DNA of 64,000 nucleotides from Minisyncoccota bacterium (GCA_035546035.1 DASZXC010000003.1:479-64478), one strand, 5' to 3'. Positions 12,141 through 43,734 are shown, counted from the first letter of the stretch. Notes: generated from the letters alone by a model not told the origin. Numbers and translations are program-made.

Positions 12141-12148
12141 GTGACATA

Positions 12149-14056: not shown

Positions 14057-15220
14057 ATGTCAGCAAAGAAAGCCCTTATATTCTCCCTCGCATACTATCC
14101 TCGCCTCGTCGGCGGGGCTGAAGTCGCCGTGAGGGAGATGACCGACCGTATCGATCCGGCGGACATCGAATTCCACATGGTCACCATGAAGGCCGGATCT
14201 CTGCCCGTGCAGGAGAAGATCGGCAACGTGACCGTCTACCGCGTCGGCCTTCCGGTGTCGTCGGGGCCGCTCTTCGCGCTCAATAAATACCTCTATCTCT
14301 TTCTTGCGCCGCTCAAGGCGTCGTGTCTCCATCGCTCGATGAAATTCGATTTCACCTGGAGCATCATGGCCTATGTCGCCGGCTTTCCCGGCCTTTTCTT
14401 CAAGCTCTTCCATATGGACGTGCCGTTCGTGCTCACGCTCCAGGAAGGCGATCCGATCGATTATATGCTCCGCAAGACGCGGTTCGTGCGGGGGACGTTC
14501 CGCAAGATATTCGCGCATGCCGACCGCATCCAGGCCATCTCGAAATACCTGGCCGATTTCGCGCGCGATATGGGTGCGACCGCAAAGCCCGTCGTCGTCC
14601 CGAACGGCGTAGATGTGGAGAAGTTCTCGAAATTCATCGTGGGCGAAGAGCTCCAGGCGATAAAGCGCGAGATCGGCAAAATGCCGGACGACGTATTCAT
14701 CGTCACAGCCGGACGCCTTGTGGAAAAGAATGCGGTCGGCGATATTATCGGCTCTCTCGTATACCTTCCGGCGAACGTGAAATTCCTCAATATCGGTTCG
14801 GGTCATCTGGAGCAAGGACTCAGACAACAGGCGAAACGGCTTGGCGTGGATAACCGCGTCATATTCAAAGGCTTCGTTCCGCATGAATCATTGCCCGGAT
14901 ACCTTCAGGCTTCCGACATATTCATCCGCCCGTCTCTCTCCGAAGGATTCGGCAATTCATTCGTCGAAGCGATGGTCGCAGGCATACCCGTCATCGCTAC
15001 GAGGACGGGCGGCATCGTCGACTTCCTCCGCGACAAAGAAACGGGGCTTTTCTGCGAAACGAATTCGCCGCAGGACATCGCCCGCAAGGTCCAGATATAT
15101 ATGCAGGACAAGAGCCTCCGCACCGAGATCGTGGATAATGCCATGCACATGGTCGTAGACCGCTATGACTGGAGGACGGTCGCGAACGACATGAAGGAGA
15201 AGGTTTTCGACCTGGTATGA
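14057..15220 (+). CDS. Glycosyltransferase family 4 (GT-B, retaining)
   Basis: 387 aa; C-terminal EGFGNSFVEAMVAGIPVIATRTGGIVDF, the canonical GT4/GT1 E-x7-E region. Confidence 0.8.
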   Translation: MSAKKALIFSLAYYPRLVGGAEVAVREMTDRIDPADIEFHMVTMKAGSLPVQEKIGNVTVYRVGLPVSSGPLFALNKYLYLFLAPLKASCLHRSMKFDFTWSIMAYVAGFPGLFFKLFHMDVPFVLTLQEGDPIDYMLRKTRFVRGTFRKIFAHADRIQAISKYLADFARDMGATAKPVVVPNGVDVEKFSKFIVGEELQAIKREIGKMPDDVFIVTAGRLVEKNAVGDIIGSLVYLPANVKFLNIGSGHLEQGLRQQAKRLGVDNRVIFKGFVPHESLPGYLQASDIFIRPSLSEGFGNSFVEAMVAGIPVIATRTGGIVDFLRDKETGLFCETNSPQDIARKVQIYMQDKSLRTEIVDNAMHMVVDRYDWRTVANDMKEKVFDLV

Positions 15221-15227
15221 TGAAGCC

Positions 15228-16340
15228 ATGAAGATTCTCGTAGCAACCGGCATATTCCCGCCGCAGATCGGCGGCCCTGCGACCTATTCCAAGCTCATAT
15301 ATGACGAGCTTCCGAAGCGCGGCATCGAAGTCGAGATCGCGAGCTTCGGCGACTACATCCACAAGCCGAGGTTCGTCAGGCATTTTATGTATTTCATGGA
15401 ATTGCTCCGCAAGGCGCCGGAAGCCGACATCATATATGCCATGGATCCCGTCTCCGTGGGGCTTCCGGCGCTCTTCGCTTCCCAGATACGCGGCAAGGAG
15501 CTCGTTCTCAAGGTCGTCGGGGACTATGCCTGGGAGCAGGGGACGCAGAGGTTCGGCGTGACCGATACGCTCGACCATTTCGCGCGGAACCATGGCGCGC
15601 ATGCCTGGCAGGTCAGGCTTCTCAAATGGATAGAAGCCTATGTCGCCGAAGGCGCGAAGCGCGTCATCACGCCTTCGAAATATCTGAAGTCGATACTCGT
15701 GGATTGGGGCGTGGACTCGCGCAATGTATCTGTCATATATAACGGCTTTCATATAGAGCCGGTCAAGGAGACTCCAAGCGTTCTGAAGAAGCGCATGAAA
15801 TGGACGGGCAAGACGATCGTCACCGTCGGGCGCCTCGTCCCATGGAAGGGGATCAAGGAAGTGATCGAGGCCATGCCCGACGTCATCGCCGCGCATCCCG
15901 ATGCCAAGCTCCTGGTTATCGGCGACGGGCCGGACGGGGAGAGCCTGAAGAAGCGCGCGACGGAGCTCGCCGTCGCCGACAGGGTCGCATTTACAGGCCG
16001 CTTGGATCAGAGAACGATGTTCGAATACGTGAAAGCATCCGACCTGTTCGTCCTGAATACGGCGTATGAAGGATTCTCGCACCAGATACTCGAAACCATG
16101 GCTTTAGGTACCCCGGTTATAACCACGGCTGTGGGCGGAAACGTCGAGATAATAAGGAATGCCGAGAACGGTATTTTGATCGCTCCTGGGGCCTTGCAGA
16201 GCCTTAAAGAGGCCATCATAGGTCTTTTGGGCAATATAAAGGGCGCTGACGGCCTTGCCCGAAAGGCTAAGAAAGACGTCTCCGGGTTCACCGACGAGAT
16301 CATGCTCGACAGGCTTGCGGACGAGCTAAAGAAGATATAG
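15228..16340 (+). CDS. Glycosyltransferase family 4
   Basis: 370 aa; EGFSHQILETMALGTPVITTAVGGNVEII. Confidence 0.8.
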   Translation: MKILVATGIFPPQIGGPATYSKLIYDELPKRGIEVEIASFGDYIHKPRFVRHFMYFMELLRKAPEADIIYAMDPVSVGLPALFASQIRGKELVLKVVGDYAWEQGTQRFGVTDTLDHFARNHGAHAWQVRLLKWIEAYVAEGAKRVITPSKYLKSILVDWGVDSRNVSVIYNGFHIEPVKETPSVLKKRMKWTGKTIVTVGRLVPWKGIKEVIEAMPDVIAAHPDAKLLVIGDGPDGESLKKRATELAVADRVAFTGRLDQRTMFEYVKASDLFVLNTAYEGFSHQILETMALGTPVITTAVGGNVEIIRNAENGILIAPGALQSLKEAIIGLLGNIKGADGLARKAKKDVSGFTDEIMLDRLADELKKI

Positions 16341-16346
16341 CGAAGT

Positions 16347-17453
16347 ATGACGAAAGTGCTCATGATATCAGCTGACGAAAAGGTGCTTCAGGTAGAAAGC
16401 CCTGTTCAGGCGCGCATGAAAGATTACGGATCGTGCTTCGACGAGCTTCACATCGTCGTGCGCTCTCTTAAAAATCCCGCTATCACGGCGGCGAAGATTT
16501 CTATAGCTCCAAATACGTTCGCGTATCCGACCCAGTCGGCCGGCAAGGCTTCATATATGAAAGACATCGTGCGCGTAGGCGGGGAAGTCATCGCGCAGGC
16601 CGGACTATCGCCGAAAGATTCCGTCATCACGGTCCAGGATCCTTTCGTCACAGGCTCCGCTGCCCTCGCATTGGCAAAACGGTCGGGCTTGCCGCTCCAT
16701 GTTCAGATTCATACCGATATGTACAGCCCCTATTTCAAAGATGGATTCCTCAACAGATTCCGCATACTCATGTCGGGTCGAGTGCTTCGCGCCGCCAAGG
16801 CGATCCGCACGGTATCAGAACGCACCCGCGCCGGTCTGCCGACGGCATTGCGCGCCAAGTCGTCCGTCGTGCCGGTCTACATAGACCTTCATGAGATAAG
16901 GAGAGCGCCGATCTCTGTCGATCTCCATCAAAAATATCCTCAATTCGAAAAGATCGCGCTCATGGCATCGCGCATCACCGCTGAAAAAGATATGCCGACG
17001 GCGTTGCGCGCATTCGCAAAAGCTCTCGCCGATCGCTCGGAGGCAGGTCTCGTCATCGCCGGCGCCGGTCCGGAGCTCGAGAATATCAAATCGCTCGTAA
17101 GCAGGCTCGGTCTCGACGAAAGCGTCGTCTTCGAGCCGTGGACAGACCATGATACTCTTGTCTCATATATGAAGACATGCGACGTTTTTATGCTCTCGTC
17201 TTTGTATGAAGGCTATGGCATGGCGCTCCTCGAAGCGCACGCGGCGGGCGCGACGATCGTTTCGACCGATGTCGGCATAGCGCCTCTTTTGGCAGGGGAA
17301 GTCTGCGAGCCGAAAGATGCCGATGCGTTCGCCCGATCGATCGTGCGCGCATTTTCAGGCGAGCTTCGCAATAAGAATTATGTGTATCCGTATCCGTCGC
17401 GCGCAGCATATCTGGCAGAGCATGCGAAAGATATAGAGCGCGCTTTGCCGTAA
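16347..17453 (+). CDS. Glycosyltransferase family 4
   Basis: 368 aa; YEGYGMALLEAHAAGATIVSTDVGIAPLL. Confidence 0.7.
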   Translation: MTKVLMISADEKVLQVESPVQARMKDYGSCFDELHIVVRSLKNPAITAAKISIAPNTFAYPTQSAGKASYMKDIVRVGGEVIAQAGLSPKDSVITVQDPFVTGSAALALAKRSGLPLHVQIHTDMYSPYFKDGFLNRFRILMSGRVLRAAKAIRTVSERTRAGLPTALRAKSSVVPVYIDLHEIRRAPISVDLHQKYPQFEKIALMASRITAEKDMPTALRAFAKALADRSEAGLVIAGAGPELENIKSLVSRLGLDESVVFEPWTDHDTLVSYMKTCDVFMLSSLYEGYGMALLEAHAAGATIVSTDVGIAPLLAGEVCEPKDADAFARSIVRAFSGELRNKNYVYPYPSRAAYLAEHAKDIERALP

Positions 17454-17470
17454 TCCCGTATAATCTCGCC

Positions 17471-17914
17471 ATGGATACCGCTCTGAATGTCATCCTCTTT
17501 CCGTACCGGCGGGCGATGCGCATATTCCGCCGATCGCAGTTTATCCGCTATATCTTTTCGGGCGGCACGGCCTCGGTTCTCGACGTCGCCCTCGTGTATG
17601 TCCTCGTGACGTATCTCAACGTCTATTATCTGGCCGCGGCGACGTTCGCTATGACGGTTTCATTCATCGCGCGATTCCTCCTCCAGAAATTCGTGGCTTT
17701 CCAGAACGATAACAAAGAAGAGGAGAAGAAGCAGTTCTTCGCGTACAGCATCCTCTATTTCGCGAGCCTTTGGGCGACGAATGCCATGCTCTACGTATTC
17801 GTCGAGAAGCTCCATATGGATGTCACGGTCTCGCAGGTTCTCGCCATACTCATATTCGCCGTCATCAGTTATTTCACCTATAAGTTGCTTATATTCAGGA
17901 AGAAGATCTCATGA
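17471..17914 (+). CDS. GtrA-family membrane protein (polyprenyl-phosphate-sugar flippase-associated)
   Basis: 147 aa, 4 TM; FIRYIFSGGTASVLDVALVYVL...FVAFQN matches the GtrA family. Confidence 0.7.
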   Translation: MDTALNVILFPYRRAMRIFRRSQFIRYIFSGGTASVLDVALVYVLVTYLNVYYLAAATFAMTVSFIARFLLQKFVAFQNDNKEEEKKQFFAYSILYFASLWATNAMLYVFVEKLHMDVTVSQVLAILIFAVISYFTYKLLIFRKKIS

Positions 17915-18963
17915 GGCTTCTTTTTATAACTCAAGCCCTCGACCTCGACGATCCGGTGCTTTCGGCGTATCACCGGCTCGTCAACGAAACGGCCAAGAAT
18001 TTCGATTCCGTAGTCGCCGTCTGCCTGAAAAAAGGGCGATGCGAATTGCCGGCGAATGTTACGATCCGCTCTTTGGGCAAAGAAAGGGGCGGCAGCCGAT
18101 TGGCCGCCAAGCTCCGCTACGTCTCTCGTTTCTACAAATATGTATTCGCGGAACGATATGACGCGGTCTTCGTCCACATGAATCAGGAATATATCCTGCT
18201 CGGCGGACCGTTCTGGAAGATGATGGGGAAGCGCATATACATGTGGAGGAACCACCATGCGGGATCGCTCCTCACCGACATCGCTGCTGCTTTCTGCGCG
18301 AAAGTATTCTGTACGTCTCGATTCTCGTACACGGCGAAATATAAAAAGACGGTTCTCATGCCCGTCGGCATAGACACGCAGACGTTCAAACCGGTACCGG
18401 ATACAAGGCGCATTCCCGGCTCGATCCTATTCCTGGCTCGCATGGCGCCGGTAAAGAAGCCTGATCTTTTTATCGAAATCCTTTTGCGCCTTGAAAAGAG
18501 CAACGTGCCGTTCACGGCGTCTCTCTACGGCGACCCTTTGCCGAAGGACGAGATATTCTACAAATTGCTCCAGGAAAAAGTCGCGGCGCTCGGCTTGGGC
18601 GACAAGACGGTGTTCTACCACGGCGTTCCGAACGGCGCGACGCCCGGTATATACAGCGCTCATGATGTTTCGGTGAATCTGTCTTCGTCCGGCATGTATG
18701 ACAAGACGATATTCGAGGCGATGGCGTGCGAGACTCTCGTGGTCGCTACGAATAAGAACCTCGACGGCCTTGTCCCGGCTGAATTCGTCGCGAAAGAGGG
18801 CGATGCGGAAGAAATCGCAGGAAAGATATCGCATCTGCTCGGGCTTTCGGCTCTGGAAAAAGATTCGTACCGCAAAAAGCTGCGCGCGACCGCCGAGGCG
18901 AAGCATTCTTTGGCTATGCTCGGCAAAAGGCTTGCGGAAGAAGTGGTCGAGCGGATAATCTAA
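17911..18963 (+). CDS. Glycosyltransferase (GT4-like, GT-B fold)
   Basis: 350 aa; the C-terminal half has a GT1/4-like Rossmann domain (SSSGMYDKTIFEAMACETLVVATN). Start overlaps the gtrA-like stop by 4 nt. Confidence 0.55.
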   Translation: MRLLFITQALDLDDPVLSAYHRLVNETAKNFDSVVAVCLKKGRCELPANVTIRSLGKERGGSRLAAKLRYVSRFYKYVFAERYDAVFVHMNQEYILLGGPFWKMMGKRIYMWRNHHAGSLLTDIAAAFCAKVFCTSRFSYTAKYKKTVLMPVGIDTQTFKPVPDTRRIPGSILFLARMAPVKKPDLFIEILLRLEKSNVPFTASLYGDPLPKDEIFYKLLQEKVAALGLGDKTVFYHGVPNGATPGIYSAHDVSVNLSSSGMYDKTIFEAMACETLVVATNKNLDGLVPAEFVAKEGDAEEIAGKISHLLGLSALEKDSYRKKLRATAEAKHSLAMLGKRLAEEVVERII

Positions 18964-18967
18964 CCAT

Positions 18968-19621
18968 ATGGACGTAAAAGCATTCGAGAACAGGCGCTGG
19001 AGCGGGGAAGACCAGGCGATCCAATTCAGGCACAGGGCGGCGCTCGACCTGGTCCCGCGCGGAACCGTGCTCGACCTCGGCTCGGGCGACGGCCTTTTGC
19101 TGTCGCTTCTGTGGAAAAAGAAGGCGATCACGGGCAAAGGGCTCGATCTTTCGGAAGAAGGCGTCAAAAAGGCGAATGCCAAAGGCCTCGACACCCGCGT
19201 ATACGATTTCGGGCTCAATAAATTGCCGTTCGCAGAGGGGAGCTTTGATACCGTCACGCTCCTCGATATCCTCGAGCATCTCTATGATCCAGGTTCGGTA
19301 TTGAAAGAGGCAGCGCGCGTCGCAAAGAAGAACGTCGTCGTCGGCGTGCCTAATTTCAGCTCGCTTCCGGCGCGACTGCAGGTTCTGCTCGGCCGCATTC
19401 CGGAGAATAACCAGCCGAAGAAGGGCCATGTCTACTGGTTCAACAAAAAAGCGCTCGAAAAGATCGCTGCGGATGCGGGATTGCGATTGGTCGAGCTTCA
19501 CACCAACACTCTTTTTGAAAGGGTTCCCGTCGTAGGGACGATAACGAGGCTCAAGGCGCGCTTCTGGCCGTCGCTCTTCGCGCTGTCGTTCGTGGCGAAG
19601 TTCGAGAAGCGCGGGAACTAA
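18968..19621 (+). CDS. Class I SAM-dependent methyltransferase (Methyltransf_11/MetW-like)
   Basis: 217 aa; VLDLGSGDGLL (motif I) ... FDTVTLLDILEHLYDP. Confidence 0.7.
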   Translation: MDVKAFENRRWSGEDQAIQFRHRAALDLVPRGTVLDLGSGDGLLLSLLWKKKAITGKGLDLSEEGVKKANAKGLDTRVYDFGLNKLPFAEGSFDTVTLLDILEHLYDPGSVLKEAARVAKKNVVVGVPNFSSLPARLQVLLGRIPENNQPKKGHVYWFNKKALEKIAADAGLRLVELHTNTLFERVPVVGTITRLKARFWPSLFALSFVAKFEKRGN

Positions 19622-19624
19622 ATC

Positions 19625-20329
19625 CTAGCGCACGAAGAGAGAGTCTTCGCGGAGGATGCCTCCGTCCTTGCCGTCGTGCCTCTGGTCTATGCCGCCTTTG
19701 TAGGTGAAGCCGAGGGAAGTCAGGAGCTTATATATATCGGCGAAAAGAGCCTGGCCTTCGTAGAACGGGACGAATGACGTCTCTACGATGAGCGCATTCG
19801 CGCTCTTAAGGAACTCCGCGCCGCCGAGGATGACTTTGTCTTCGTAGCCCTGCGTATCCATTTTGACGAGGATGTTCTTCTCGGTGCGGGCTGATCTCAT
19901 TTCAGGGATATCGTCGAGGCGGCGCACGGATATGGCCTCTGTGCTCTCGCCTTTGGTATGAGGATAGAGGTCTTTGTGGAGCTGGGCCATCTTGAGGAGC
20001 GACGAGCTCGCCGAATACGAGCTGCGGTTGATATCGGTCGCGGCGTTCCGGTCGCCGAGCGCGCAGTTGAAGGCTTGGAATCGAGGATCGCCCGCCCGCG
20101 AGGCGACGAGCTCGTCATAACAGTCTTTCAGAGGCTCGAACGAATATATGAACGCATCAGGAAGGACAGAGCGGATCTCTTCCGCGAATTGACCGGTGTT
20201 GGCGCCTATGTCGAGGACCGTCTTGATGCCGCGCTCCTTGAGCCAGATGAGCTGGTTCGGCTTGGGCCTGTATTTATGGAAATCGAGGCCGGCTTTCCAA
20301 AGTATCTTTCGGAGAGGGTTTACTGACAT
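19625..20329 (-). CDS. FkbM-family methyltransferase
   Basis: 234 aa; VLDIGANTGQFAEE ... LVKMDTQGYEDKVILGG, the FkbM-domain pattern. Confidence 0.7.
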   Translation of the reverse strand: MSVNPLRKILWKAGLDFHKYRPKPNQLIWLKERGIKTVLDIGANTGQFAEEIRSVLPDAFIYSFEPLKDCYDELVASRAGDPRFQAFNCALGDRNAATDINRSSYSASSSLLKMAQLHKDLYPHTKGESTEAISVRRLDDIPEMRSARTEKNILVKMDTQGYEDKVILGGAEFLKSANALIVETSFVPFYEGQALFADIYKLLTSLGFTYKGGIDQRHDGKDGGILREDSLFVR

Positions 20330-21252
20330 ATGCTTCGAACTATACGCGTTGTTTCCTGTTTAATCCAGCGGAGAGGGGAGATCTCCGCTGCGAACCCATA
20401 TTTCCATGAAGGTTCGACTGATGCGATCTCGTCCTGCGCCTTTTGGAGCGCGGCGATATAGGCATCGTAGATCTTCCCGTGATGGACGGTGATCGGATAC
20501 GGACGTACCGTATTTCCGTCGAGATATGCGATAAAGCCGTGGAAGTGATAGCAGACGAGGGCCTCTCCGTCTATGGAGAATCCTTCGCCCCGCTGCCTGA
20601 TGGTATAGCGGTCAATGTTCCACGTGCCGAGATTCACGCCCTTTTCCGGTATCTCTTCTATATTCGAAAATTCCTGCGGCCAGGTCTTCAGGTATGACTG
20701 GTCTCCGTGGCGGCCTTTGTCGTGATAGTTGAAGCACCATTCGATGCACTGACCTTTCCATTTTCGGAGCGCTGCCTTGCTTGTCTCGTCGTCCTTGAAG
20801 ACGATGAAACCCGAATTGAAATAACCGACGAGATCCGCGAGCGGCGCTTTCTTCGGCGTGAATTTATGGGACGTGAGCATGATAGACGCGTTCGGATGCG
20901 CATCGAAGAGGGGAGCGACGGAAGAATAGAAGAGCAGGTCTGAATCGGCGAATATGAGCGATCCCCTCACTTTTCTTTCGAGGAGATAGCTCATGATCGC
21001 CGGCTTGCACGTCCATGCGAATTCCTGCTTTGTCCGGGCGCGCGTCGCTTCCAAGTCTTTGTTCCCGATATCTACGAGCGCCACTGTCTTTATGCCCGGC
21101 TTCCCGAGCTTTTTAAAAAGCCTTTCGGATTCGTCGTCGAGGCACAGGACCCAGAGCCTCGAGCCGGGCATATGCCTTTCTATTGAATCAAAAAGAGCCA
21201 GGCATTTATAGACAAAGTTCTTGTCGGTAAGGGTGCAAAAATCGTAGGTCAT
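20320..21252 (-). CDS. Putative nucleotide-diphospho-sugar (GT-A-like) glycosyltransferase with DxD motif
   Basis: 310 aa; WVLCLDDES, ADSDLLF (DxD), GYFNSGFIVFK. Weak family assignment. Confidence 0.4.
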   Translation of the reverse strand: MTYDFCTLTDKNFVYKCLALFDSIERHMPGSRLWVLCLDDESERLFKKLGKPGIKTVALVDIGNKDLEATRARTKQEFAWTCKPAIMSYLLERKVRGSLIFADSDLLFYSSVAPLFDAHPNASIMLTSHKFTPKKAPLADLVGYFNSGFIVFKDDETSKAALRKWKGQCIEWCFNYHDKGRHGDQSYLKTWPQEFSNIEEIPEKGVNLGTWNIDRYTIRQRGEGFSIDGEALVCYHFHGFIAYLDGNTVRPYPITVHHGKIYDAYIAALQKAQDEIASVEPSWKYGFAAEISPLRWIKQETTRIVRSICQ

Positions 21253-22295: not shown

Positions 22296-22358
22296 CCGTG
22301 CCTTTAAATCGCCTTTAAATATAGCATTAAATCTGCTATATTTCCCTTATATTTCAAC

Positions 22359-22979: not shown

Positions 22980-22980
22980 C

Positions 22981-25519: not shown

Positions 25520-25526
25520 TCCTGCG

Positions 25527-27092: not shown

Positions 27093-27118
27093 AAAAACCG
27101 CCGCGCGGCGGTTTTTTG
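27090..27118. terminator. Bidirectional intrinsic terminator (AAAAAAAccgccgcgcggcggTTTTTT)
   Basis: GC-rich palindrome flanked by an A-run and a T-run, between convergent genes. Confidence 0.8.
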
Positions 27119-27123
27119 CATGT

Positions 27124-27912: not shown

Positions 27913-27949
27913 TGGGGTTATCGCACGTGCTACTCATTATACATAGTCC

Positions 27950-29637: not shown

Positions 29638-29643
29638 GCGATT

Positions 29644-32519: not shown

Positions 32520-32521
32520 GG

Positions 32522-33280: not shown

Positions 33281-33289
33281 AGGCCGATG

Positions 33290-34135: not shown

Positions 34136-34144
34136 GGCTTAGTT

Positions 34145-37064: not shown

Positions 37065-37068
37065 GTGA

Positions 37069-38007
37069 TTACAATCTTATCCAATTCTCCGCATAGACGT
37101 CTTTCGTATCCGCTTTCGGAGCATTCCTAAACCAGACCTTCGGCGCGACGACGACCTTGTCCGTGCGCGGATTGAGCCATGCGCCCCACCAGCCGAACGA
37201 CGAATTGGCGATGATATGGTGCTTGCACGCGCTCATGAGGGCCAGGTCTTCATAGTCGCTCGCCTCGGTGCCTTTTATGCACGTGACGGGATGTTTCAGG
37301 CCCTTGAAGTTCTCGACTGACCACGCATAGTCGTCGGAGAATATGAAGAAATGAGGATTCGCGACGTTCTTTTCGATATGGGCGATGGCCGCGGCGTAAT
37401 AGCTCATGGAACAGACGCCGTGCATCTCTGCGGCAAGGGGGTCGGTGACATAGTCGCCGCGCCGGACATGGAGGGAGACCGCATTTGCTTTCTTTATCTC
37501 TTCGAGCGCCTTGAGGCTCGCTTCCGAAAGCGCTTTTACGGGCGTTATCTCGGCTCGGAGTTCATCAGCGATGTGTCTGAAATACTTCTCGCCCTGCCAG
37601 TCGCCGTCGAAATAGGTCGAGCTTTTCCGGGCAAAGACTTCAACGTCATATGCGAACGTCTTTTCAGGATAATAGAAAGGGAGGAAGAATCGCTTTCCGC
37701 GGAGATATTTATAGAATGCGTCGAATGCCTTGTAATGCTTACGGATGCCGACGAAGCCGAACATGTCGCCGTCTTCGGCAAAAGGCGTTTTCGTGTTGAA
37801 GAGGTTGAGGGAGTATTTTCTGTGTATCTTATGCGGGTCCCAGCGGGCGTCGTCGCACACTTTTTTGTCGATCAGATAGGGCATTCCGAGGCGCGCCGAG
37901 ACTCCGCGCGCGAATGCGTACTGAAAGAGCTGATTGCCTGTGCCGCCTTGGATGCGTACGATGATCTTTTTCATTCTTTTATCGTTGCCGGATCGACCGT
38001 CTTCCAC
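37069..38007 (-). CDS. GT11 alpha-1,2-fucosyltransferase
   Basis: 312 aa; IIVRIQGGTGNQLFQYAFARG at the N-terminus (the GT11 hallmark), HVRRGDY. Confidence 0.7.
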   Translation of the reverse strand: MEDGRSGNDKRMKKIIVRIQGGTGNQLFQYAFARGVSARLGMPYLIDKKVCDDARWDPHKIHRKYSLNLFNTKTPFAEDGDMFGFVGIRKHYKAFDAFYKYLRGKRFFLPFYYPEKTFAYDVEVFARKSSTYFDGDWQGEKYFRHIADELRAEITPVKALSEASLKALEEIKKANAVSLHVRRGDYVTDPLAAEMHGVCSMSYYAAAIAHIEKNVANPHFFIFSDDYAWSVENFKGLKHPVTCIKGTEASDYEDLALMSACKHHIIANSSFGWWGAWLNPRTDKVVVAPKVWFRNAPKADTKDVYAENWIRL

Positions 38008-38870
38008 ATGTCTTTGAAACCGGCGTTTCCATAGACCTTGTTCTTGTCGTCGCCTTCGACGACCTCGAAGCCGTTCGATTCCATAAAAGCGTCGAGCTCC
38101 GCTTCCGTATACGCTCCTTCGTATTCCGCCTCGAGGGGGATCTCGGCGATGACGAAGACGATCCTCTTCAGATATTCTCCGGCGCTTCGTATAACGGCGA
38201 TATCGTTTCCTTGGGTATCTACCTTAAGCGCGTCTATGCGCTTGAATCGATCCCAAGGGATATGCGAGAGAAAGTCGGAAAGCCGTACCGTCGGGACGGA
38301 TATCTGTTTCGCCGTGCGGTAGCGGAGAGGCCTTAGAAAGCTCGATGTGCCGACGCCGTCCGTCACGTTGAATCGTTTCATGTCCGGCTTCGCATCGTCT
38401 ACGGCAAGGCCGAATACGAGCATGTTCTTTCCGAGGCTCTGTGCCCAGTCGACGCCGCCAACCTTTCGAAGCGAAGGCGCGACGAGCGTTCGGAGCTTAT
38501 TTCGATCGGCCTTGCCCGTGAATATAAAATCGAGCGCTTCAGGGTTCGGTTCGAAGCCGAATACGAACGTTCGCGGGTCGTTCTTGATCCACAGAGCGGA
38601 ATTCGGGGCGGTGTAGGAAAGCCCCACGTCTAGGCGGAGCGATGTGATATCGCGGGGTATGTCGAGGCCGAACGCGCTCTCCGTCGAGCGAGCCGATGCA
38701 TAGAGCTTGTCCGTCAGCGCGCGCATGTCGTGCGCGGTATCGCGACACGCCGACGCATCTCGAGCGATCGATCTTTCCTTTGAGCGCTCGCCAAGGCTTT
38801 GCCACTTCTTTTGAAGCGGCGCATATATGCTCGAAGGCACGATATTCTTGGCTAAGCGTTTGATCGACAT
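37971..38870 (-). CDS. FkbM-family methyltransferase
   Basis: 299 aa; FGFEPNPEA ... ALKVDTQGNDIAVIRSAGEYL. Confidence 0.6.
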   Translation of the reverse strand: MSIKRLAKNIVPSSIYAPLQKKWQSLGERSKERSIARDASACRDTAHDMRALTDKLYASARSTESAFGLDIPRDITSLRLDVGLSYTAPNSALWIKNDPRTFVFGFEPNPEALDFIFTGKADRNKLRTLVAPSLRKVGGVDWAQSLGKNMLVFGLAVDDAKPDMKRFNVTDGVGTSSFLRPLRYRTAKQISVPTVRLSDFLSHIPWDRFKRIDALKVDTQGNDIAVIRSAGEYLKRIVFVIAEIPLEAEYEGAYTEAELDAFMESNGFEVVEGDDKNKVYGNAGFKDMWKTVDPATIKE

Positions 38871-39512
38871 CTATCGTTTTGGGTAGATACGGATGTTGTC
38901 GTTCTTGACCTCGAATCCGTAGCCGGCCGCCGTCGCCATCTTTTCCACTCTTTCGAGGGTCGGATAGTTATTCTTGCCGACGAATTCGCGGGCGTCGTCT
39001 ATGAGGATCACGTGGTTCTTGACCGGATGGGCGAATATGACCTTGAGCTCTTCTTCGACGGGCGTATCGACGTCGGTGCGCGTCGTCTCGCCGCCGGAGA
39101 AATGCGCGTCGAGCCAGAAGAGCGCGGGCTCTTGTATCTCCGCGAGCATCTTGGGAAGCATGACTCCGCTATCGCCGTGGAAAAGCTTCACGTGCCTTTC
39201 GTTCGCGTATTTTTTGACGGCGTCGGCATAGAGCGCATCGGAGAGCTCGACGGAATATATCGCGTCGAAGCGGCGGATCATGGTGTCGATCATCTCGCCC
39301 TTGTACGTGCCGGTCTCGACGAATACGCGCGGCTTGAACTTGGAATAGTAGCCGATGATCGAGTTCACGCGCTCTGCGTGGAGCTTTGCGTGCTTTCGGC
39401 GCTCTCGGACTTTGATGTAGATCCCATAGAGGCCGAATACCTTCAATACTCCTTTCGCCACGCGGCGGGCCGGGGTAGAAGGGATATGTGGTTTGCTGTA
39501 GACGATGCTCAT
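38871..39512 (-). CDS. Class I SAM-dependent O-methyltransferase (TylF/MycF/CmcI-like)
   Basis: 213 aa; VFVETGTYKGE ... LFWLDAHFSGG ... ILIDDA. Confidence 0.5.
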   Translation of the reverse strand: MSIVYSKPHIPSTPARRVAKGVLKVFGLYGIYIKVRERRKHAKLHAERVNSIIGYYSKFKPRVFVETGTYKGEMIDTMIRRFDAIYSVELSDALYADAVKKYANERHVKLFHGDSGVMLPKMLAEIQEPALFWLDAHFSGGETTRTDVDTPVEEELKVIFAHPVKNHVILIDDAREFVGKNNYPTLERVEKMATAAGYGFEVKNDNIRIYPKR

Positions 39513-39513
39513 A

Positions 39514-40461
39514 TTATTGTATGTTCTTAAGGAATCTATCGAAGAAGACCTGGGTCGTATATTCTTTCACCGCTCTCCGGTACGCGTTCTCGATTATCGG
39601 CTTGTATGAATCATAGTTGGCGAGGATCTCCCGGACCGTTTCTTCGAGCTTGTCCGGTTCGTAATACACGAATTCTTTTCCGGGGGTGAAAAACTTCTCT
39701 ATGATATTGAATTCGTCTTTGCGGCAGAGGATGAGGGATTTGCCGAACGCCGCGTCGAATGTCCTGGATTTGATCTGGGGCACCATCGCCGTCTGCTTCT
39801 TGAACATGCCCCTGATGCTCCAGCGCGGTATGCCCGCATAGGCTTTGTTTTCCTTCCAGCCGCGCGTCCCGCGGACGCATCTTATCTCTTGGTCGCGGAG
39901 GAAGAGCAGGTTGTGGACGAGCGTGATCTTGGATTCGGATACAAGCTTGATCTTCTGGTCATAATCCGCGTTCGGATCGGTGGTAAGAGGGTAGTCTGCA
40001 GGGGCAACGAGGCGGTAATTGAATCTCGCTATCTCTTTCACGCTCTTCTCGATCTCGGGCGTATATTCGGTGAAGATGTGCCCGGCGTATATGATGTCGT
40101 ATTTCTTGTCGAACGTCTTCGGTATCTTGTTCTCGTTAAAAGGTATGAAAGAGAAGGCGCGCTTGTCGTTCTCGTATCTTTTATTGAGCCATTCGACGGT
40201 GTACGGGCATATGCTGAAGACTTTGTAGAGGAGGTCTTCGTATATCTCGTGCCTGAAGTCGCGGTTGTCGGTGAAGAACCTATTCGGCTCTTCGAATTCG
40301 AGATGCACGATCTTGTCGCCTTTGATGTCGAGAAGGCCGCGAAAATCCAAGAATCCTTCGATGAGCCAGAAATCTCCCGCCCTGCCGGCGAAGCGCGCGA
40401 AATCGAATGTCCTCGTGGCGTCGAATTTATACGTCTTTACGCGCTTGTTGAAGATTTTCAT
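39514..40461 (-). CDS. Hypothetical protein, possibly CgeB-like GT-B glycosyltransferase
   Basis: 315 aa; only the C-terminal KSRTFDAAFGKSLILC...FVYYEPDKLEETV resembles the GT1/CgeB-like C-terminal region. Confidence 0.3.
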   Translation of the reverse strand: MKIFNKRVKTYKFDATRTFDFARFAGRAGDFWLIEGFLDFRGLLDIKGDKIVHLEFEEPNRFFTDNRDFRHEIYEDLLYKVFSICPYTVEWLNKRYENDKRAFSFIPFNENKIPKTFDKKYDIIYAGHIFTEYTPEIEKSVKEIARFNYRLVAPADYPLTTDPNADYDQKIKLVSESKITLVHNLLFLRDQEIRCVRGTRGWKENKAYAGIPRWSIRGMFKKQTAMVPQIKSRTFDAAFGKSLILCRKDEFNIIEKFFTPGKEFVYYEPDKLEETVREILANYDSYKPIIENAYRRAVKEYTTQVFFDRFLKNIQ

Positions 40462-41714
40462 GAGAGTTTCTCGGTATGGTGATCGAGGATGTTCGATATC
40501 TTGCCAGGGTTGTAGCCGCGATAGACCTTTGATCGGGGATTGTCCACGTCGAGTATCTCGAAATTGACGTCTTTCTTGGTATCAAACGATCGGATGCCCG
40601 GGTCATGGAGATGGACATCGAACGTGTGTATGCCGACATTGAAAAGGAATTTCGGTATCTTGACCGTCGTCGAATAGGTGCCCGGTTCGCGATCGAACGC
40701 CTCGCCCTTCTTATCCGAATCCGACGTGACGAGGAGGAGTTCGCCGTCGGCATGGATATAGAGCGATAGTATCGAGCGCTCGATCTCGCGCTTGATCGTG
40801 TAATCTACCTGGACGGTGAAATCCTTGCTCACCGGTATGCGCGGCGTAAGCTCGCCGTCTTCGTCCTTGATGGTCACTTTAGTGACGAATGCGTCCTGGT
40901 CCTTCGGCTCGAATTCAGTGACACTCAAAAGGGAGGCTTCCTGGAGGTATCGGTCGATGACCTTTTCGGTCTCGCCGATCATCTTTATCTTTCCTTTTTC
41001 GAGCAAGATGCAGGTCTTACAGAGCGATCGTACTGCGGACAGGTTATGGCTGACGAACAATATCGTGCGGCCCTGGGCTTGGGTCACTTCTTCCATCTTG
41101 CCGAGGCATTTCTTTTGGAATTCTGCGTCGCCGACGGCGAGGACCTCGTCCACGAGCAGTATGTCCGGCTCCATATGCGCCGCGACCGAGAATGCGAGGC
41201 GCACGTACATGCCGCTCGAATAGTATTTGACCGGCGTATCTATGAATTTCTCTATGCCCGCGAATTCGACGATGGATTCGAAGTTCTTCGCGATCTCCTT
41301 CTTCTTCATGCCCAAGATGGCGCCGTTGAGGAATATGTTCTCGCGTCCGGTGAGCTCGGGATGGAAGCCGGTGCCGACTTCGAGGAGCGACGCCACGCGG
41401 CCGCGCATGACGATCTCGCCTTCGGAAGGCGGCGTGATGCCCGTGAGGATCTTGAGGAGCGTCGATTTTCCCGCTCCGTTTCTGCCGATGATGCCGATGA
41501 CCTCTCCGGGCATCACCTGGAAATCGATGCCTTTGAGCGCCCAGAACTCTTCTTTCGTGCCGATGCCGGCCACGTTCTTGGCTTTCTGCTTGAAGAATTT
41601 GAACGGGCTCTTTACGATGTTCATGAGCACGTCGCGCAGGGCAACATACTTGCCCCGATAGTGGCTGATGCTATATCGCTTGCCGACGCCTTTTACTTCG
41701 ATGATGGGTTTCAT
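40458..41714 (-). CDS. wzt: Polysaccharide ABC exporter ATP-binding protein (Wzt/TagH-type) with C-terminal carbohydrate-binding extension
   Basis: 418 aa; GRNGAGKSTLLK (Walker A), YSSGMYVRLAF (signature), LLVDEVLAVGD (Walker B), plus a ~170-aa C-terminal domain typical of Wzt. Confidence 0.85.
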   Translation of the reverse strand: MKPIIEVKGVGKRYSISHYRGKYVALRDVLMNIVKSPFKFFKQKAKNVAGIGTKEEFWALKGIDFQVMPGEVIGIIGRNGAGKSTLLKILTGITPPSEGEIVMRGRVASLLEVGTGFHPELTGRENIFLNGAILGMKKKEIAKNFESIVEFAGIEKFIDTPVKYYSSGMYVRLAFSVAAHMEPDILLVDEVLAVGDAEFQKKCLGKMEEVTQAQGRTILFVSHNLSAVRSLCKTCILLEKGKIKMIGETEKVIDRYLQEASLLSVTEFEPKDQDAFVTKVTIKDEDGELTPRIPVSKDFTVQVDYTIKREIERSILSLYIHADGELLLVTSDSDKKGEAFDREPGTYSTTVKIPKFLFNVGIHTFDVHLHDPGIRSFDTKKDVNFEILDVDNPRSKVYRGYNPGKISNILDHHTEKLS

Positions 41715-41726
41715 AGTCGATTGCGA

Positions 41727-42551
41727 TTAGAGTATATCGGCGAAATACCTCTCGACTTTTTTAAAATACGCCGAGCCGACAAGGAGTATGACGAGGCAGG
41801 CCAGCGACGATATGCCGAGGAGCGTCCAGTTGACGGCGGTCGTGCCCAAAAGCGCCGCGCGCGCCGACTGGATGACGCCCGTCATCGGGTTAAGGGCGAG
41901 GAGCCACGAATATTTGCCCGCGATAGATGCCGGATATATGACCGGCGTGAGGAACAAGAGTATCTGGATGAAGAACGGCAGCGCGTATCGCACGTCGCGA
42001 TATTTTACATTGACGGCCGCGAGGAAGAGGCCGGCGCCCACCGATGCCATGAACGTGATGAGCAGAAGCAGAGGGATGAGCCAGATGCCCATAAGATGCG
42101 GCACGAATCCGTAATAGATCATGAGCCCGGCGAGCACGATCGCGGCGAACAGGAAGTCCACGAATTTGGATATGACGCCGGAGATAGGGAGGAGGAGGCG
42201 GGGGAAGTAGACCTTGGTTATGATCGCCTGGTTCCCGATGAGGACGTTCGACGTATCAGAGAGCGCGCCCGAAAAGAATTGCCAGAAAAGGAGGCCCGTA
42301 TAGACGAAGATCGGATATGGCACGCCGTCCGATGGCACCTGGGCCAGATTGCCGAAGAATACCGAGAACACGATCATCGTCACGAACGGCTGGAGTATCG
42401 CCCAAAGCGCGCCGATGAACGTCTGCTTATAGCGCACCTTGAAATCGCGCCAGGTGAAGAAATAGAGCAGCTCGCGGTAATTCCAAAGCTCCCTGACGTC
42501 GTTCCAGGAAAAGCTTTTCTTCGGGCGTATAACGGTGAGGGTCTCGTGCAT
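41727..42551 (-). CDS. wzm: ABC-2 type polysaccharide exporter permease (Wzm)
   Basis: 274 aa, 6 TM, ABC-2 family pattern (ILQPFVTMIVFSVFFG...); directly upstream of wzt. Confidence 0.85.
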   Translation of the reverse strand: MHETLTVIRPKKSFSWNDVRELWNYRELLYFFTWRDFKVRYKQTFIGALWAILQPFVTMIVFSVFFGNLAQVPSDGVPYPIFVYTGLLFWQFFSGALSDTSNVLIGNQAIITKVYFPRLLLPISGVISKFVDFLFAAIVLAGLMIYYGFVPHLMGIWLIPLLLLITFMASVGAGLFLAAVNVKYRDVRYALPFFIQILLFLTPVIYPASIAGKYSWLLALNPMTGVIQSARAALLGTTAVNWTLLGISSLACLVILLVGSAYFKKVERYFADIL

Positions 42552-42554
42552 GCT

Positions 42555-43475
42555 CTATATATTGTTGAAGTCCTGGAACGGGTCGTAGAACTTGTAGACT
42601 TTCACCATCTCCGCGATACCGTCGTCGAGAGTCTTCTTCGGCTTGAAGCCGAGGGCCGCGAGCTTTGCATAGCTTATGTTGAAATCGCGCGTGTCGGCGT
42701 CTTTGATCTCCGAATTGACGATCTTGCAGCCGGTAGCCTTCGCGATCTTTTCAGCGATCTCGAGCTTTGTGAAATTGAGCGAATCAGAGCCGACGTTGTA
42801 GACGTTGCCTTTCATCCGGTCTGTCTTGTCGAGGGCAAGGAGGTATGCGTCTATCGCATCGTCTATGTGGAGGCAGGTGCGCTTGGAATGCGCCTGGAAG
42901 AGCACGAGGACGCGATCGTAAATAGCGCGATAGCAGAAATCGTTGACGATGAGGTCGGTGCGCATGCGCGGGCTCGCCCCGAAAATAGTGGCGAAGCGGA
43001 AGCCGATGCTGTTCTTACGCTTCATGACGGCCTCTTCGCCGGCGAATTTCGTCTTGCTGTACACGCTCTTCAGCTTTACCGGCGTGGTCTCGTCGCAGTT
43101 CGCGCCTTTCTGATCGCCGTATACCGTCGTGGTGCCGGCATAGACGATAAGGGTCTCTGGATCGGCGAGTTCGGCGATCTTTATCGTCGCTTCCGCGTTT
43201 ATGGACCATGCCGACGAAGGGTTCGCCTCGCACGCAGGAAGGCCGCCGAGGCCGCCGAGATGGAATATGACGTCGAAGCCCGCGAGAGTCTCTTTCGTCA
43301 CGTTGCGTATGTCGTCTTTCGCTACCGAAAGCCGCGCATTCTTCACCAGGTGCATGACAGGATCATATCCGTAGAGGAAATTGTCGTGGATCGTGACGTC
43401 ATGCGCGCGGTCGAGGAGCTTTTCCGCGAGGAGGATGCCTTTGTAGCCCGCACCGCCGGTGATGAGGATCTTCAT
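42555..43475 (-). CDS. NAD-dependent sugar epimerase/dehydratase (extended SDR)
   Basis: 306 aa; KILITGGAGYKG (GxxGxxG), YSKTKFAGE (YxxxK). Confidence 0.8.
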   Translation of the reverse strand: MKILITGGAGYKGILLAEKLLDRAHDVTIHDNFLYGYDPVMHLVKNARLSVAKDDIRNVTKETLAGFDVIFHLGGLGGLPACEANPSSAWSINAEATIKIAELADPETLIVYAGTTTVYGDQKGANCDETTPVKLKSVYSKTKFAGEEAVMKRKNSIGFRFATIFGASPRMRTDLIVNDFCYRAIYDRVLVLFQAHSKRTCLHIDDAIDAYLLALDKTDRMKGNVYNVGSDSLNFTKLEIAEKIAKATGCKIVNSEIKDADTRDFNISYAKLAALGFKPKKTLDDGIAEMVKVYKFYDPFQDFNNI

Positions 43476-43485
43476 ATAAATGATT

Positions 43486-43734
43486 TTACCACCTGTTAAT
43501 CTTGTTCACGACCTTCTTCTTGAGCTTGAGGTACTCTTTCACGGCGCCTTTCTCGAGGTCAGGGGAGACGAGGCGGAGGATCTCCTTGCCGAGGATGCGG
43601 TATTGGCCGCCGACCTTGTTCGCGCGGATGAGCCCGCGCTTCAGCATGCGCTTTATGGTACTTTCGCTTATGCGGAGCACCTGGCGGGTCTCTTCCGTCG
43701 TATAGACTGCGTTGGGCTTGATCTCTTCTGCCAT
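43486..43734 (-). CDS. Helix-turn-helix DNA-binding protein (excisionase/MerR-like HTH_17 family)
   Basis: 82 aa; YTTEETRQVLRISESTIKRMLKRGLI matches the HTH_17 pattern. Confidence 0.6.
   Translation of the reverse strand: MAEEIKPNAVYTTEETRQVLRISESTIKRMLKRGLIRANKVGGQYRILGKEILRLVSPDLEKGAVKEYLKLKKKVVNKINRW

Follow-up and report, generated by a model that had tools for sequence, protein, structure and literature searches.

Gene content of the island

The window analysed here is a stretch of 64,000 nt from a Minisyncoccota bacterium (GCA_035546035.1 DASZXC010000003.1:479-64478), and all positions given below are counted within the whole window. Between positions 14057 and 43734 it carries an island for glycan assembly with genes for glycosyltransferases (GTs), methyltransferases and a Wzm/Wzt exporter of the ATP-binding cassette (ABC) type. 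A gene for a Wzy_C protein with C-terminal tetratricopeptide repeats (TPR) starts 83 bp past the end of the island on the opposite strand; it lies outside the interval considered in a preliminary description of this DNA and was overlooked there. We regard it as fairly probable that this is a composite surface-glycoconjugate locus of a Paceibacteria bacterium, in which the glycan of one module (module B) is exported in an ABC-dependent manner and transferred by the Wzy_C-TPR protein, and in which a second module (module A) forms a conserved unit.

The island is tiled by 31 open reading frames (ORFs) with spacings of -37 to +63 bp between neighbours. They are arranged in four strand blocks (plus, 14057-19621; minus, 19625-22295; plus, 22359-27092; minus, 27124-43734). 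Both borders agree with the preliminary description and are true gene ends, namely the ATG of the first GT4 gene at 14057 and the start of the minus-strand gene for an 82-aa HTH_17 protein at 43734. The ORFs were scanned with Pfam and NCBIfam, and the Pfam gathering scores were used as cut-off for calling glycosyltransferases (Table 1).

About 14 glycosyltransferases and two weaker candidates had been counted before. We found 12 above the Pfam cut-offs and two below threshold (27950-28873 and 34145-35317), both of which have conserved orthologues in relatives; one further enzyme is assigned by motifs alone. Only one of the two GT11 genes named in the preliminary description is a strong family member (37069-38007), the other (27950-28873) being the first of the two sub-threshold cases. 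The earlier minimum of eight methyltransferases including two FkbM enzymes holds. Seven are recognised by Pfam, of which five are of class I (18968, 22359, 27124, 28873, and the C-terminal half of 25527) and two are FkbM proteins (19625 and 37971), and the eighth (38871-39512) is recognised by its predicted fold. That these proteins are S-adenosylmethionine (SAM)-dependent methyltransferases is borne out by Pfam and, for 38871-39512, by profile comparison, AlphaFold and Foldseek. The hidden Markov model scans also recovered the three GT4 genes and the remaining content that had been described: GtrA, a GT-C gene beside a GT2 gene, an AsnB-like amidotransferase, two short-chain dehydrogenase/reductase (SDR) proteins, a split transketolase and wzm-wzt, to which the small HTH_17 gene is added. 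At equivalog level, neither donor nor acceptor could be assigned with NCBIfam for any glycosyltransferase or SDR protein of the island.

A concentration of one functional class this dense cannot be chance. Every element fits the well-known logic of glycan assembly, and both the components and their overall logic are already known. New are the host phylum, the fixed genomic site with its cassette-wise variation anchored by the Wzy_C-TPR gene, and a conserved fusion of a GT2 with a methyltransferase.

The GC content of the island is 54.4% as compared to 56-57% in the flanks. Neither att-like repeats nor an integrase or a tRNA gene were found at its borders, and the intergenic gaps, all of at most 83 bp including the one to the Wzy_C-TPR gene, contain no mobile-element scars. 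A recent arrival on a mobile element is therefore unsupported; the bare borders and the small shift in composition point to exchange within the lineage rather than to a recent foreign insertion. No regulatory RNA was detected inside the island with Rfam. Long antisense ORFs, for example 41046-43499 on the plus strand, were judged to be GC-driven shadow frames, and three antisense ORFs searched against Pfam (678-2183, 10126-11502 and 22347-22982, all on the minus strand) gave no match. For 22359-22979 plus is the coding strand, as the Methyltransf_11 match is found there and the overlapping minus-strand ORF is without match.

Table 1. Genes of the island and the adjoining Wzy_C-TPR gene. L-numbers denote homologous loci in relatives, percentages are identities to the orthologue in the locus named, and scores in bits are family matches.
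Feature	Position	Strand	Evidence
GT4 glycosyltransferase 1	14057..15220	+	Glycos_transf_1 118 bits, Glyco_transf_4 59 bits; 59% L085
GT4 glycosyltransferase 2	15228..16340	+	Glycos_transf_1 137 bits; 60% L085
GT4 glycosyltransferase 3	16347..17453	+	Glycos_transf_1 93 bits; 50% L085
GtrA-family small membrane protein, putative polyprenyl-phosphate-sugar flippase	17471..17914	+	PF04138 64 bits; 4 hydrophobic segments
GT-B glycosyltransferase	17911..18963	+	Glyco_trans_1_4 50.5 bits; 54% L085, 52% L086
Class I SAM methyltransferase (MetW/Methyltransf_23/11)	18968..19621	+	MetW 82 bits, Methyltransf_11 56 bits
Variable cassette: FkbM methyltransferase	19625..20329	-	PF05050 56 bits; cassette absent from L085
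Variable cassette: GT-A, GT8/Nucleotid_trans-like	20320..21252	-	PF03407 32.6 bits, PF01501 24.9 bits
Variable cassette: GT-B glycosyltransferase	21249..22295	-	Glycos_transf_1 54 bits; 72%, partial orthologue at contig end of L084
Class I SAM methyltransferase	22359..22979	+	Methyltransf_11 40.6 bits; 83%, orthologue called in L084
GT-B glycosyltransferase	22981..24123	+	Glyco_trans_1_4 76.5 bits; 77% L084, 56% L085
GT-C membrane glycosyltransferase, PMT_2/ArnT-like	24116..25519	+	PF13231 53.9 bits; about 9 hydrophobic segments
GT2, Zn-ribbon and class I methyltransferase fusion	25527..27092	+	GT2 108 bits, Methyltransf_11 47.7 bits, Trm112p-like
Class I methyltransferase, last gene of the long minus block	27124..27912	-	Methyltransf_11 33 bits, FtsJ 28 bits
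Conserved sub-block: weak GT11-like protein	27950..28873	-	PF01531 16.7 bits (cut-off 23.9); 60% L084, 48% L085
Conserved sub-block: DUF268/Methyltransf_11 methyltransferase	28873..29637	-	PF03269 43 bits; 73% L084 and L085
Pfam-less protein, GT-A-like by motifs only	29644..30645	-	64% L085
Variable cassette: SDR epimerase/dehydratase	30612..31637	-	PF01370 141 bits; no NCBIfam equivalog reached
Variable cassette: transketolase C-terminal subunit	31638..32519	-	Transket_pyr 79 bits, Transketolase_C
Variable cassette: transketolase N-terminal subunit (thiamine diphosphate, ThDP)	32522..33280	-	Transketolase_N 144 bits
Conserved sub-block: GT2	33290..34135	-	PF00535 102 bits; 54-59% in L084, L085, L082, L089
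Conserved sub-block: weak GT-B	34145..35317	-	Glyco_trans_1_4 25.6 bits (cut-off 27)
Conserved sub-block: AsnB-like glutamine amidotransferase	35310..37064	-	Asn_synthase 279 bits, GATase_7; TIGR01536 478 bits
wzt-proximal: GT11, fucosyltransferase family	37069..38007	-	PF01531 130 bits; 83% L081
wzt-proximal: FkbM methyltransferase	37971..38870	-	PF05050 52 bits; 55% L081
wzt-proximal: Pfam-less class I methyltransferase-fold protein	38871..39512	-	AlphaFold and Foldseek; 78% L081
wzt-proximal: Glyco_trans_1_2 glycosyltransferase	39514..40461	-	PF13524 34.6 bits; 84% L081, 78% at end of L087
Wzt, ABC ATPase with C-terminal carbohydrate-binding-type beta-sandwich (residues ~264-415)	40458..41714	-	ABC_tran (PF00005) 81 bits
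Wzm, ABC-2 permease	41727..42551	-	PF01061 65 bits; 64-84% in relatives
SDR epimerase/dehydratase upstream of wzm	42555..43475	-	PF01370 101 bits; 65% L087
HTH_17 small DNA-binding protein, first gene of the wzm-wzt block	43486..43734	-	PF12728 43.8 bits
Wzy_C (O-antigen ligase/O-oligosaccharyltransferase family) with C-terminal TPR	43818..45995	+	Wzy_C 82.8 bits, TPR_8/1/2; 725 aa

The Wzy_C-TPR gene and its genomic site

In the Wzy_C-TPR protein an external loop holds the ligase motif H-N-x9-G-xx-G. Conservation is highest in the external loop and lowest in the TPR region, and among 50 homologues the residues R216, R278, R292 and H339 each reach 97% conservation or more. The membrane part has no match in the PDB at the sequence level; the TPR region alone does. 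For O-oligosaccharyltransferases of the PglL type Pfam holds a model of a specific accessory domain besides Wzy_C, but in the Pfam scan of this protein only Wzy_C and TPR families were found.

The region upstream of secA was compared in 43 relatives with at least 6 kb of sequence there. The Wzy_C-TPR gene is located upstream of secA in 39 of them, and murB is also kept there in 32. The Wzy_C-TPR gene belongs to the core genes of this lineage. The entire 29.7 kb are absent from three relatives (L008, L009 and L024), in which a TrwB/HerA-like gene lies about 20-650 bp from the Wzy_C-TPR gene. Other relatives carry wzm-wzt beside the Wzy_C-TPR gene or a few kb from it, and the genes beyond wzt differ. 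The window shares the order TrwB-like gene, module A, module B with L085, and the order module A, module B, Wzy_C-TPR gene with the contig comprising L084 and L005.

A TrwB/VirD4/HerA-like ATPase gene (12149-13993, plus strand) forms the left border of module A in the window, in L085 and in L086. It may be part of a monoderm-type type IV secretion machinery, as has been described for Patescibacteria (bioRxiv 10.1101/2025.01.22.634366). Upstream of this gene a putative glycoside hydrolase of family DUF4015 is encoded (10072-11313, plus strand, 290 bits), a pairing that recurs in L086; the longer ORF antisense to it (10126-11502) is a shadow frame.

Within the island, which has a mosaic structure, a conserved module A (14057-27092) is combined with a variable module B (27124-43734). 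Module A has the order GT4 (three genes), GtrA, GT-B, methyltransferase, cassette, methyltransferase, GT-B, GT-C, GT2::methyltransferase. It is collinear in L085 (50-81% identity), in L084 (74-85%), which shares its contig with L005, the closest relative, and in the Taylorbacteria genome L086 (26-58%). The cassette (FkbM, GT8-like, GT-B; 19625-22295) interrupts module A relative to L085. Module B is composed of a moderately conserved sub-block (48-73% identity) and of replaceable cassettes. The sub-block comprises the GT11-like gene, the DUF268 methyltransferase, 29644-30645, GT2, GT-B and AsnB. Replaceable are the SDR and split transketolase genes (30612-33280), which occur in the window only and are missing between the orthologous neighbours in L084 and L085, further the wzt-proximal set, the terminal methyltransferase (27124-27912, no orthologue in the compared loci) and the SDR gene before wzm. 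The wzt-proximal set (GT, methyltransferase-fold protein, FkbM, GT11) is shared only with L081 and its first gene also with L087, and the HTH_17 gene has the same position in L081, L082, L087 and L090.

This mosaic bears on the earlier assumption of one glycan pathway. Adjacent but unrelated glycan pathways could have gathered at a recombination hot spot, so that modules A and B and the Wzy_C-TPR protein would be uncoupled. The four strand blocks, the presence of module A alone in L086, the replacement of genes cassette by cassette between relatives and the complete lack of the island in three of them agree with this explanation, whereas the gene orders shared with L085 and with the L084 and L005 contig, and gaps of at most 83 bp free of mobile-element scars, speak against it. 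A single pathway is not established, given the split into conserved and variable modules and the distance of module A from any wzm-wzt in L086. The preliminary description had named several unrelated operons as evidence against its own view, and the genome-context comparison provides this in part. We consider uncoupled pathways possible, if on the unlikely side, and continue to favour the composite surface-glycoconjugate locus.

The Wzm/Wzt exporter

The genes wzm and wzt are separated by 12 bp. The proposal that they encode a polysaccharide ABC exporter whose Wzt carries a C-terminus of carbohydrate-binding type was upheld by two approaches. First, residues 53-371 of Wzt align by phmmer to full-length Aquifex aeolicus Wzt, reaching into its carbohydrate-binding domain (E 3e-69). 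Second, residues 264-415 are all-beta in the AlphaFold2 (AF2) model (predicted local distance difference test, pLDDT, 75-96), and the best Foldseek matches of the model are the full-length WzmWzt entries 8dku and 7k2t (E 2e-38, 417 columns, 35% identity); entries comprising only the nucleotide-binding domain (NBD) reached 1e-28. The C-terminal domain of Aquifex Wzt binds a 3-O-methyl-Man/Rha cap (PMC9445017).

The two domains of Wzt have diverged to a different extent. Averaged over 56 homologues, identity to the window Wzt is 78% for the NBD and 40% for the C-terminal domain, which evolves about twice as fast. Values of 69-70% for the C-terminal domain were found only in L081 and L087, the loci sharing the first gene of the wzt-proximal cassette. 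Five loci with other cassettes show 39-44%, their NBDs 77-82%. In L005, L007, L082, L089 and L091 wzt is directly followed by a methyltransferase gene, and in the window, L081 and L030 such a gene lies within two genes of wzt; TylF, CmcI-type rhamnosyl O-methyltransferase, Methyltransf_23 and FkbM types were found there. Such a pattern would be expected if the neighbouring enzymes modified the chain terminus and the C-terminal domain recognised this modification.

Eight methyltransferases amid glycosyltransferases could also indicate intracellular polymethylated polysaccharides without any role at the surface, similar to the mycobacterial methylglucose lipopolysaccharides and methylmannose polysaccharides, whose loci resemble the island. 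The Wzm/Wzt pair with its cap-binding-type domain, the GT-C and GtrA proteins and the adjoining Wzy_C ligase, however, argue for extracytoplasmic products, which makes this explanation extremely improbable. An exported surface glycan is the reading followed below.

A probable extracytoplasmic glycosylation unit in module A

The most conserved gene of the region is the fusion gene 25527-27092, with 56-85% full-length identity (about 519 aa) across the phylum; homologues span Paceibacteria, Taylorbacteria, Sungbacteria and others. The protein consists of a GT2 domain, a Trm112-like Zn-ribbon, an intact class I methyltransferase and a hydrophobic C-terminal part, for which one transmembrane-like segment (486-504) was found by hydropathy scan and two by reading the sequence. 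The best PDB matches of the GT2 domain are the dolichol-phosphate mannose synthase DPMS (5mlz, 3e-18), ArnC (2e-14) and GtrB (1e-10), which places it, at family level, among the polyprenyl-phosphate-sugar synthases as had been suggested. The top NCBIfam matches AglJ, PgfS and ArnC are all below the cut-off. The GT-C protein (24116-25519) has the acidic motif HGDDGYY in its first loop; it shows 74, 56 and 46% identity in L084, L085 and L086, respectively, and no match in the PDB at the sequence level.

At family level the GtrA protein, the GT2 of polyprenyl-phosphate-sugar-synthase type and the GT-C enzyme are likely to form a classical three-component unit for extracytoplasmic glycosylation. 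The three genes are syntenic in L085 and L086. Such three-component systems are found in phage Gtr O-antigen glucosylation and in the decoration of streptococcal (GacI/GacL) and enterococcal (Epa) polymers. The likeness comprises the GtrA protein, a GT2 of the synthase clade, a GT-C with acidic first-loop motif and the adjacency of the GT2 and GT-C genes. Unlike in these systems, the GT2 domain shares one polypeptide with a Zn-ribbon and a class I methyltransferase; the triad, moreover, is found among five to six cytoplasmic glycosyltransferases and is more conserved than the presumed backbone genes, which is the opposite of typical serotype-converting decorations. This higher conservation makes a conserved acceptor a more probable target of the unit than a variable chain.

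The actinobacterial pathways of Ppm1/Pmt O-mannosylation and of phosphatidylinositol mannosides, lipomannan and lipoarabinomannan (PIM/LM/LAM) combine GT4 enzymes, a polyprenyl-phosphate-sugar synthase and a PMT_2/GT-C enzyme outside the membrane, and they require no phosphoglycosyltransferase. Module A resembles them in all three enzyme types in a cell presumably without lipopolysaccharide (LPS); the comparison is one of architecture, the NCBIfam matches being far below the cut-offs. The locus could accordingly make a lipoglycan on a membrane glycolipid: the GT4 enzymes would glycosylate a diacylglycerol or phospholipid anchor, so that no phosphoglycosyltransferase would be needed, the triad would extend the product outside, and the Wzy_C-TPR protein would ligate the module B chain to this conserved core. 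The lack of WbaP and WecA in the window and the likeness of conserved module A and variable module B to core and O-chain agree with such an arrangement, and the sub-threshold NCBIfam matches of the GT4 proteins include MGlcDAG synthase, IagA/BgsA and GlcN-PG synthase. These matches, however, are far below the equivalog cut-offs and extend equally to exopolysaccharide and thiol enzymes, no lipoglycan is known from the phylum, literature pairing the phylum with glycan terms gave nothing relevant, and the argument is purely architectural. We consider a lipoglycan decidedly unlikely as compared with a glycoconjugate on a surface acceptor.

Enzymes and possible sugar supply of module B

For 29644-30645 no match was found in Pfam, NCBIfam or the PDB, and its family profile likewise finds nothing in the PDB. 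A weak hhalign match to the GT2 family (E 0.046) aligns the motifs SFVxxxRND, VEWNPP and TNPD. The family comprises 2241 proteins (E<=1e-3), which are either stand-alone proteins of about 330 aa or carry two to four repeated domains in 1000-2800 aa.

The profile of the family of 38871-39512 matches exclusively class I SAM methyltransferases in the PDB. The AlphaFold model has a pLDDT of 89, and all 50 of its top 50 Foldseek matches in the PDB are class I SAM methyltransferases. The family (about 210 aa, more than 6000 unannotated members in public data) has the invariant residues E65-T-G-T68, D134-x-H136 and D171-D172. Judged from the predicted fold, it is a candidate family of sugar O-methyltransferases without a curated model. 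In L082 (12962-13474) a domain homologous to it is found at the C-terminal end of a 463-aa GT2.

The AsnB-like protein has 48-62% identity in six relatives. Full-length orthologues of the weak GT-B 34145-35317 are found in L084, L085, L082 and L089 (38-52%), and a partial one at the end of L091 (50%, 26% coverage). The split transketolase perhaps transfers a two-carbon unit onto a keto-sugar. In an equivalent island, L090 contains an E1_dh/Transket_pyr pair with ADH and PfkB (10132-13154). Two-subunit ThDP-dependent enzymes recur in these glycan islands. A "transketolase" in L074 was dismissed as a parallel, as this gene is unsplit and of housekeeping type. A literature search on split transketolases in glycan loci yielded nothing useful.

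The preliminary description had proposed a possibly fucose-containing glycan. The GT11 genes alone suggest fucose, and no Gmd or Fcl was found in the window with NCBIfam, though relatives carry a gmd-NUDIX-fcl-like trio. Directly upstream of wzm, a gmd-like SDR, a NUDIX protein and an fcl-like SDR are encoded in L089 (3736-6187), and two SDR proteins and a DegT aminotransferase in L091 (3024-6164). This suggests that the genes before wzm supply GDP-6-deoxyhexose or amino sugars for the conserved GT11. The window has a single non-orthologous SDR gene at this place.

Host and envelope

The 80 best genomic SecA matches all stem from metagenome-assembled genomes (MAGs) of Patescibacteria, also known as the Candidate Phyla Radiation (CPR), among them Paceibacterota, Taylorbacteria, Kaiserbacteria and others, with a top identity of 87%. 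A Wzt 100% identical to that of the window is annotated in a Candidatus Paceibacterota MAG, and the homologues of the GT2::methyltransferase fusion likewise come from Patescibacteria. In the general view, Patescibacteria are monoderm cells with neither an outer membrane nor LPS.

In the preliminary description the island was interpreted by way of the O-polysaccharides of Escherichia coli O8/O9a. In such an LPS locus a WbdD-like methyl or phospho-methyl cap would end the chain and gate Wzt, and the chain would be ligated to the lipid A-core. The Wzm/Wzt pair with its cap-binding-type domain, the numerous methyltransferases, the adjoining "O-antigen ligase" gene of the Wzy_C family and the JGI label of the Wzt homologues ("lipopolysaccharide transport system ATP-binding protein") could be read in this way. 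The host, however, belongs to a phylum held to be without LPS, and no lipid A, core or Lpt gene (lpx, lpt, waa) was found within the 64 kb. For these two reasons we regard an O-antigen locus of LPS as very improbable. A WbdD-like kinase domain was likewise not found by Pfam among the methyltransferases, coiled coils not having been scanned for.

The similarity to the cap-dependent O-antigen exporters of E. coli O9a/O8 (Wzt-C and WbdD) and Aquifex WzmWzt is confined to the export step: an ABC-2 permease, a Wzt with NBD and C-terminal beta-sandwich (for Aquifex, the fold matches over the full length at 35% identity; PMC9445017), methyltransferase genes close downstream of wzt and a C-terminal domain that diverges far faster than the NBD. 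The island differs in that an LPS acceptor is presumably lacking, no WbdD kinase/methyltransferase was found, Trp362 has no counterpart and the Wzt_C match is sub-threshold.

By domain content, a better analogue, and apparently the closest known one, is given by the slg clusters for protein O-glycosylation of Paenibacillus alvei CCM 2051T and Geobacillus stearothermophilus NRS 2004/3a (PMC2943079). These clusters belong to monoderm hosts and contain wzm-wzt and overlapping glycosyltransferase genes, a methyl cap being added by the methyltransferase domain of WsaE. They further encode a Wzy_C O-oligosaccharyltransferase with C-terminal TPR (WsfB; elsewhere WsaB and the TPR protein WsaA), an asparagine-synthase homologue (WsfA), a lipid-glucose branch system (WsfH/WsfD) and a WbaP homologue (WsaP/WsfP) (PMC2943079). 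The locus studied here has, by domain, wzm-wzt beside tightly packed glycosyltransferase genes, methyltransferases, a Wzy_C-TPR protein with the architecture of WsfB (PMC2943079), an AsnB homologue and a branch using a lipid-linked sugar; a GC content slightly below the flanks and the monoderm host, which is assumed for this bacterium, are further common traits. In contrast to the slg clusters the island contains no WbaP-type initiator (WsaP/WsfP), no rml genes and no nearby S-layer gene, and its methyltransferases number eight where the slg clusters have a single domain. The Wzy_C-TPR gene, conserved lineage-wide upstream of murB-secA, is not part of a strain-specific cluster, and the additional conserved module A and the CPR host have no parallel there.

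Initiation and acceptor

The only PF00953 gene in the window (5997-7130) was considered as a WecA-type initiator and rejected. It scores 168 bits with TIGR00445 (mraY) as compared to 42 bits for WecA, the structures matched are only those of MraY (2e-35), and the gene is conserved in relatives without the island. The earlier statement that WecA and WbaP are lacking in the window is thus correct. The initiator is either encoded elsewhere in the genome or not needed.

MraY belongs to a peptidoglycan-related neighbourhood on the minus strand (3444-9203) that also encodes a MurC-like ligase, a 218-aa protein with faint GNAT similarity, a weakly NlpC/P60/CHAP-like protein and a 411-aa protein without Pfam match that appears ATP-grasp-like by eye. 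L009 and L024 have retained mraY and the two genes after it as one block, and these two following genes are retained in L008 too.

The nearness of murB and mraY directs attention to a secondary polysaccharide anchored to the cell wall, of the rhamnopolysaccharide (Rgp/Gac, Epa) or teichoic type. Wzm/Wzt would export it in the manner of TagGH, the triad would decorate it outside, an LCP enzyme encoded elsewhere would attach it to peptidoglycan, and the Wzy_C-TPR protein would be functionally unrelated. The best NCBIfam matches of Wzt are indeed TagH teichoic-acid exporters, TarGH/TagH structures rank high, and the Wzy_C-TPR gene occurs without the island in L008, L009 and L024. The GtrA/GT2/GT-C triad is known as decoration machinery of streptococcal and enterococcal wall polymers, which likewise counts for this possibility. 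On the other hand, no LCP, TagO/WecA or rml genes were found in the window, and solved TagH/TarH chains align over the NBD alone, Aquifex Wzt being the only one of the matched structures to cover the C-terminal domain. Moreover, the Wzy_C-TPR gene lies 100 bp to 4.7 kb from wzm-wzt in the window and in L005, L007, L013, L081, L082, L089 and L091. A wall-anchored polymer is therefore unlikely, and transfer by the Wzy_C-TPR protein is retained in the scheme that follows.

Proposed assembly pathway

In the order of steps that we infer, cytoplasmic GT-A and GT-B enzymes of module B would build a lipid-linked heteroglycan, which may contain a 6-deoxyhexose such as fucose (from GT11) and an amidated sugar (from AsnB). 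Several of the SAM methyltransferases would O-methylate this glycan. Its non-reducing terminus would be made by the wzt-adjacent set of GT, methyltransferase-fold protein, FkbM and GT11; the fast-evolving C-terminal beta-sandwich of Wzt would recognise this terminus and thereby license export via Wzm/Wzt. Outside the membrane the Wzy_C-TPR protein would take the glycan off the polyprenyl carrier and attach it to a surface acceptor, which by analogy with the Gram-positive slg clusters is most likely a protein of S-layer or pilin type. The older, conserved module A, with its GT4 and GT-B enzymes, the GtrA flippase, the synthase::methyltransferase and the GT-C adding a sugar at the outer face, may decorate the same glycoconjugate or build a separate conserved one.

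Methyl gating of export, which had been put forward before, is plausible, because methyltransferase genes follow wzt in most relatives and the C-terminal domain of Wzt co-varies with them. It is only plausible, since the co-variation is seen in about seven loci and is partly confounded by phylogenetic distance, no WbdD-type terminator was found (Pfam detects no kinase domain among the methyltransferases; coiled coils were not scanned for), and the Trp contact of Aquifex is not conserved. Residues 259-418 of Wzt contain no Trp, so that the methyl-contacting Trp362 of Aquifex has no counterpart; 48 of 57 Wzt homologues are likewise without Trp in this domain.

These limits on gating count against the proposed pathway, as do several further observations. 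The match of the window Wzt to Wzt_C (PF14524) is 23.9 bits and below the cut-off of 30.4, PF14524 being present in most Wzt homologues. Neither an initiating phosphoglycosyltransferase (no PF02397 gene) within the 64 kb nor an S-layer, pilin or other obvious acceptor gene in the window was found. In addition, L086 has module A without wzm-wzt within 10 kb, and the Wzy_C-TPR gene is kept in three relatives without island, which makes its link to the island positional and not exclusive.

Implications for Patescibacteria

CPR bacteria are thought to be attached to host cells, their envelopes are almost uncharacterised and their genomes are generally small. About 30 kb are here given to what is probably a methyl-rich surface glycan, at a conserved site whose content is swapped by cassette between relatives. 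The locus thus makes surface variation, host specificity and phage pressure in CPR accessible to concrete tests, and the two Pfam-less enzyme families as well as the conserved GT2::methyltransferase fusion merit biochemical study. In the literature searched, no paper paired Patescibacteria with Wzt and nothing was found on such loci in Patescibacteria; a 2026 review on Patescibacteria mentions S-layers and pili, and the words glycosyl-, polysaccharide and teichoic are absent from it.

A bolder interpretation, which we hold to be quite unlikely, is an "O-antigen-like" system of CPR without outer membrane, in which the Wzy_C-TPR protein would ligate a hypervariable methyl-capped Wzm/Wzt glycan to the core made by module A or to surface proteins. 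If so, the system would be present in Paceibacteria and perhaps in CPR at large, and to which hosts these ultra-small episymbionts attach, and which phages infect them, would depend chiefly on the cassette-swapping island. On this reading the product of the GT2::methyltransferase fusion would be a methylated lipid-linked sugar donor; we know of no description of such a donor.

Other features of the window

Genes for the large (with ATP-cone) and small subunits of a class I ribonucleotide reductase are located at 58264-62281 on the plus strand of this CPR genome. Besides the RNase P RNA of bacterial class A (62335-62629, minus strand, 144.6 bits) and tRNA-Ile(GAT) (617-690, plus strand), no other Rfam or tRNA match was obtained in the window.

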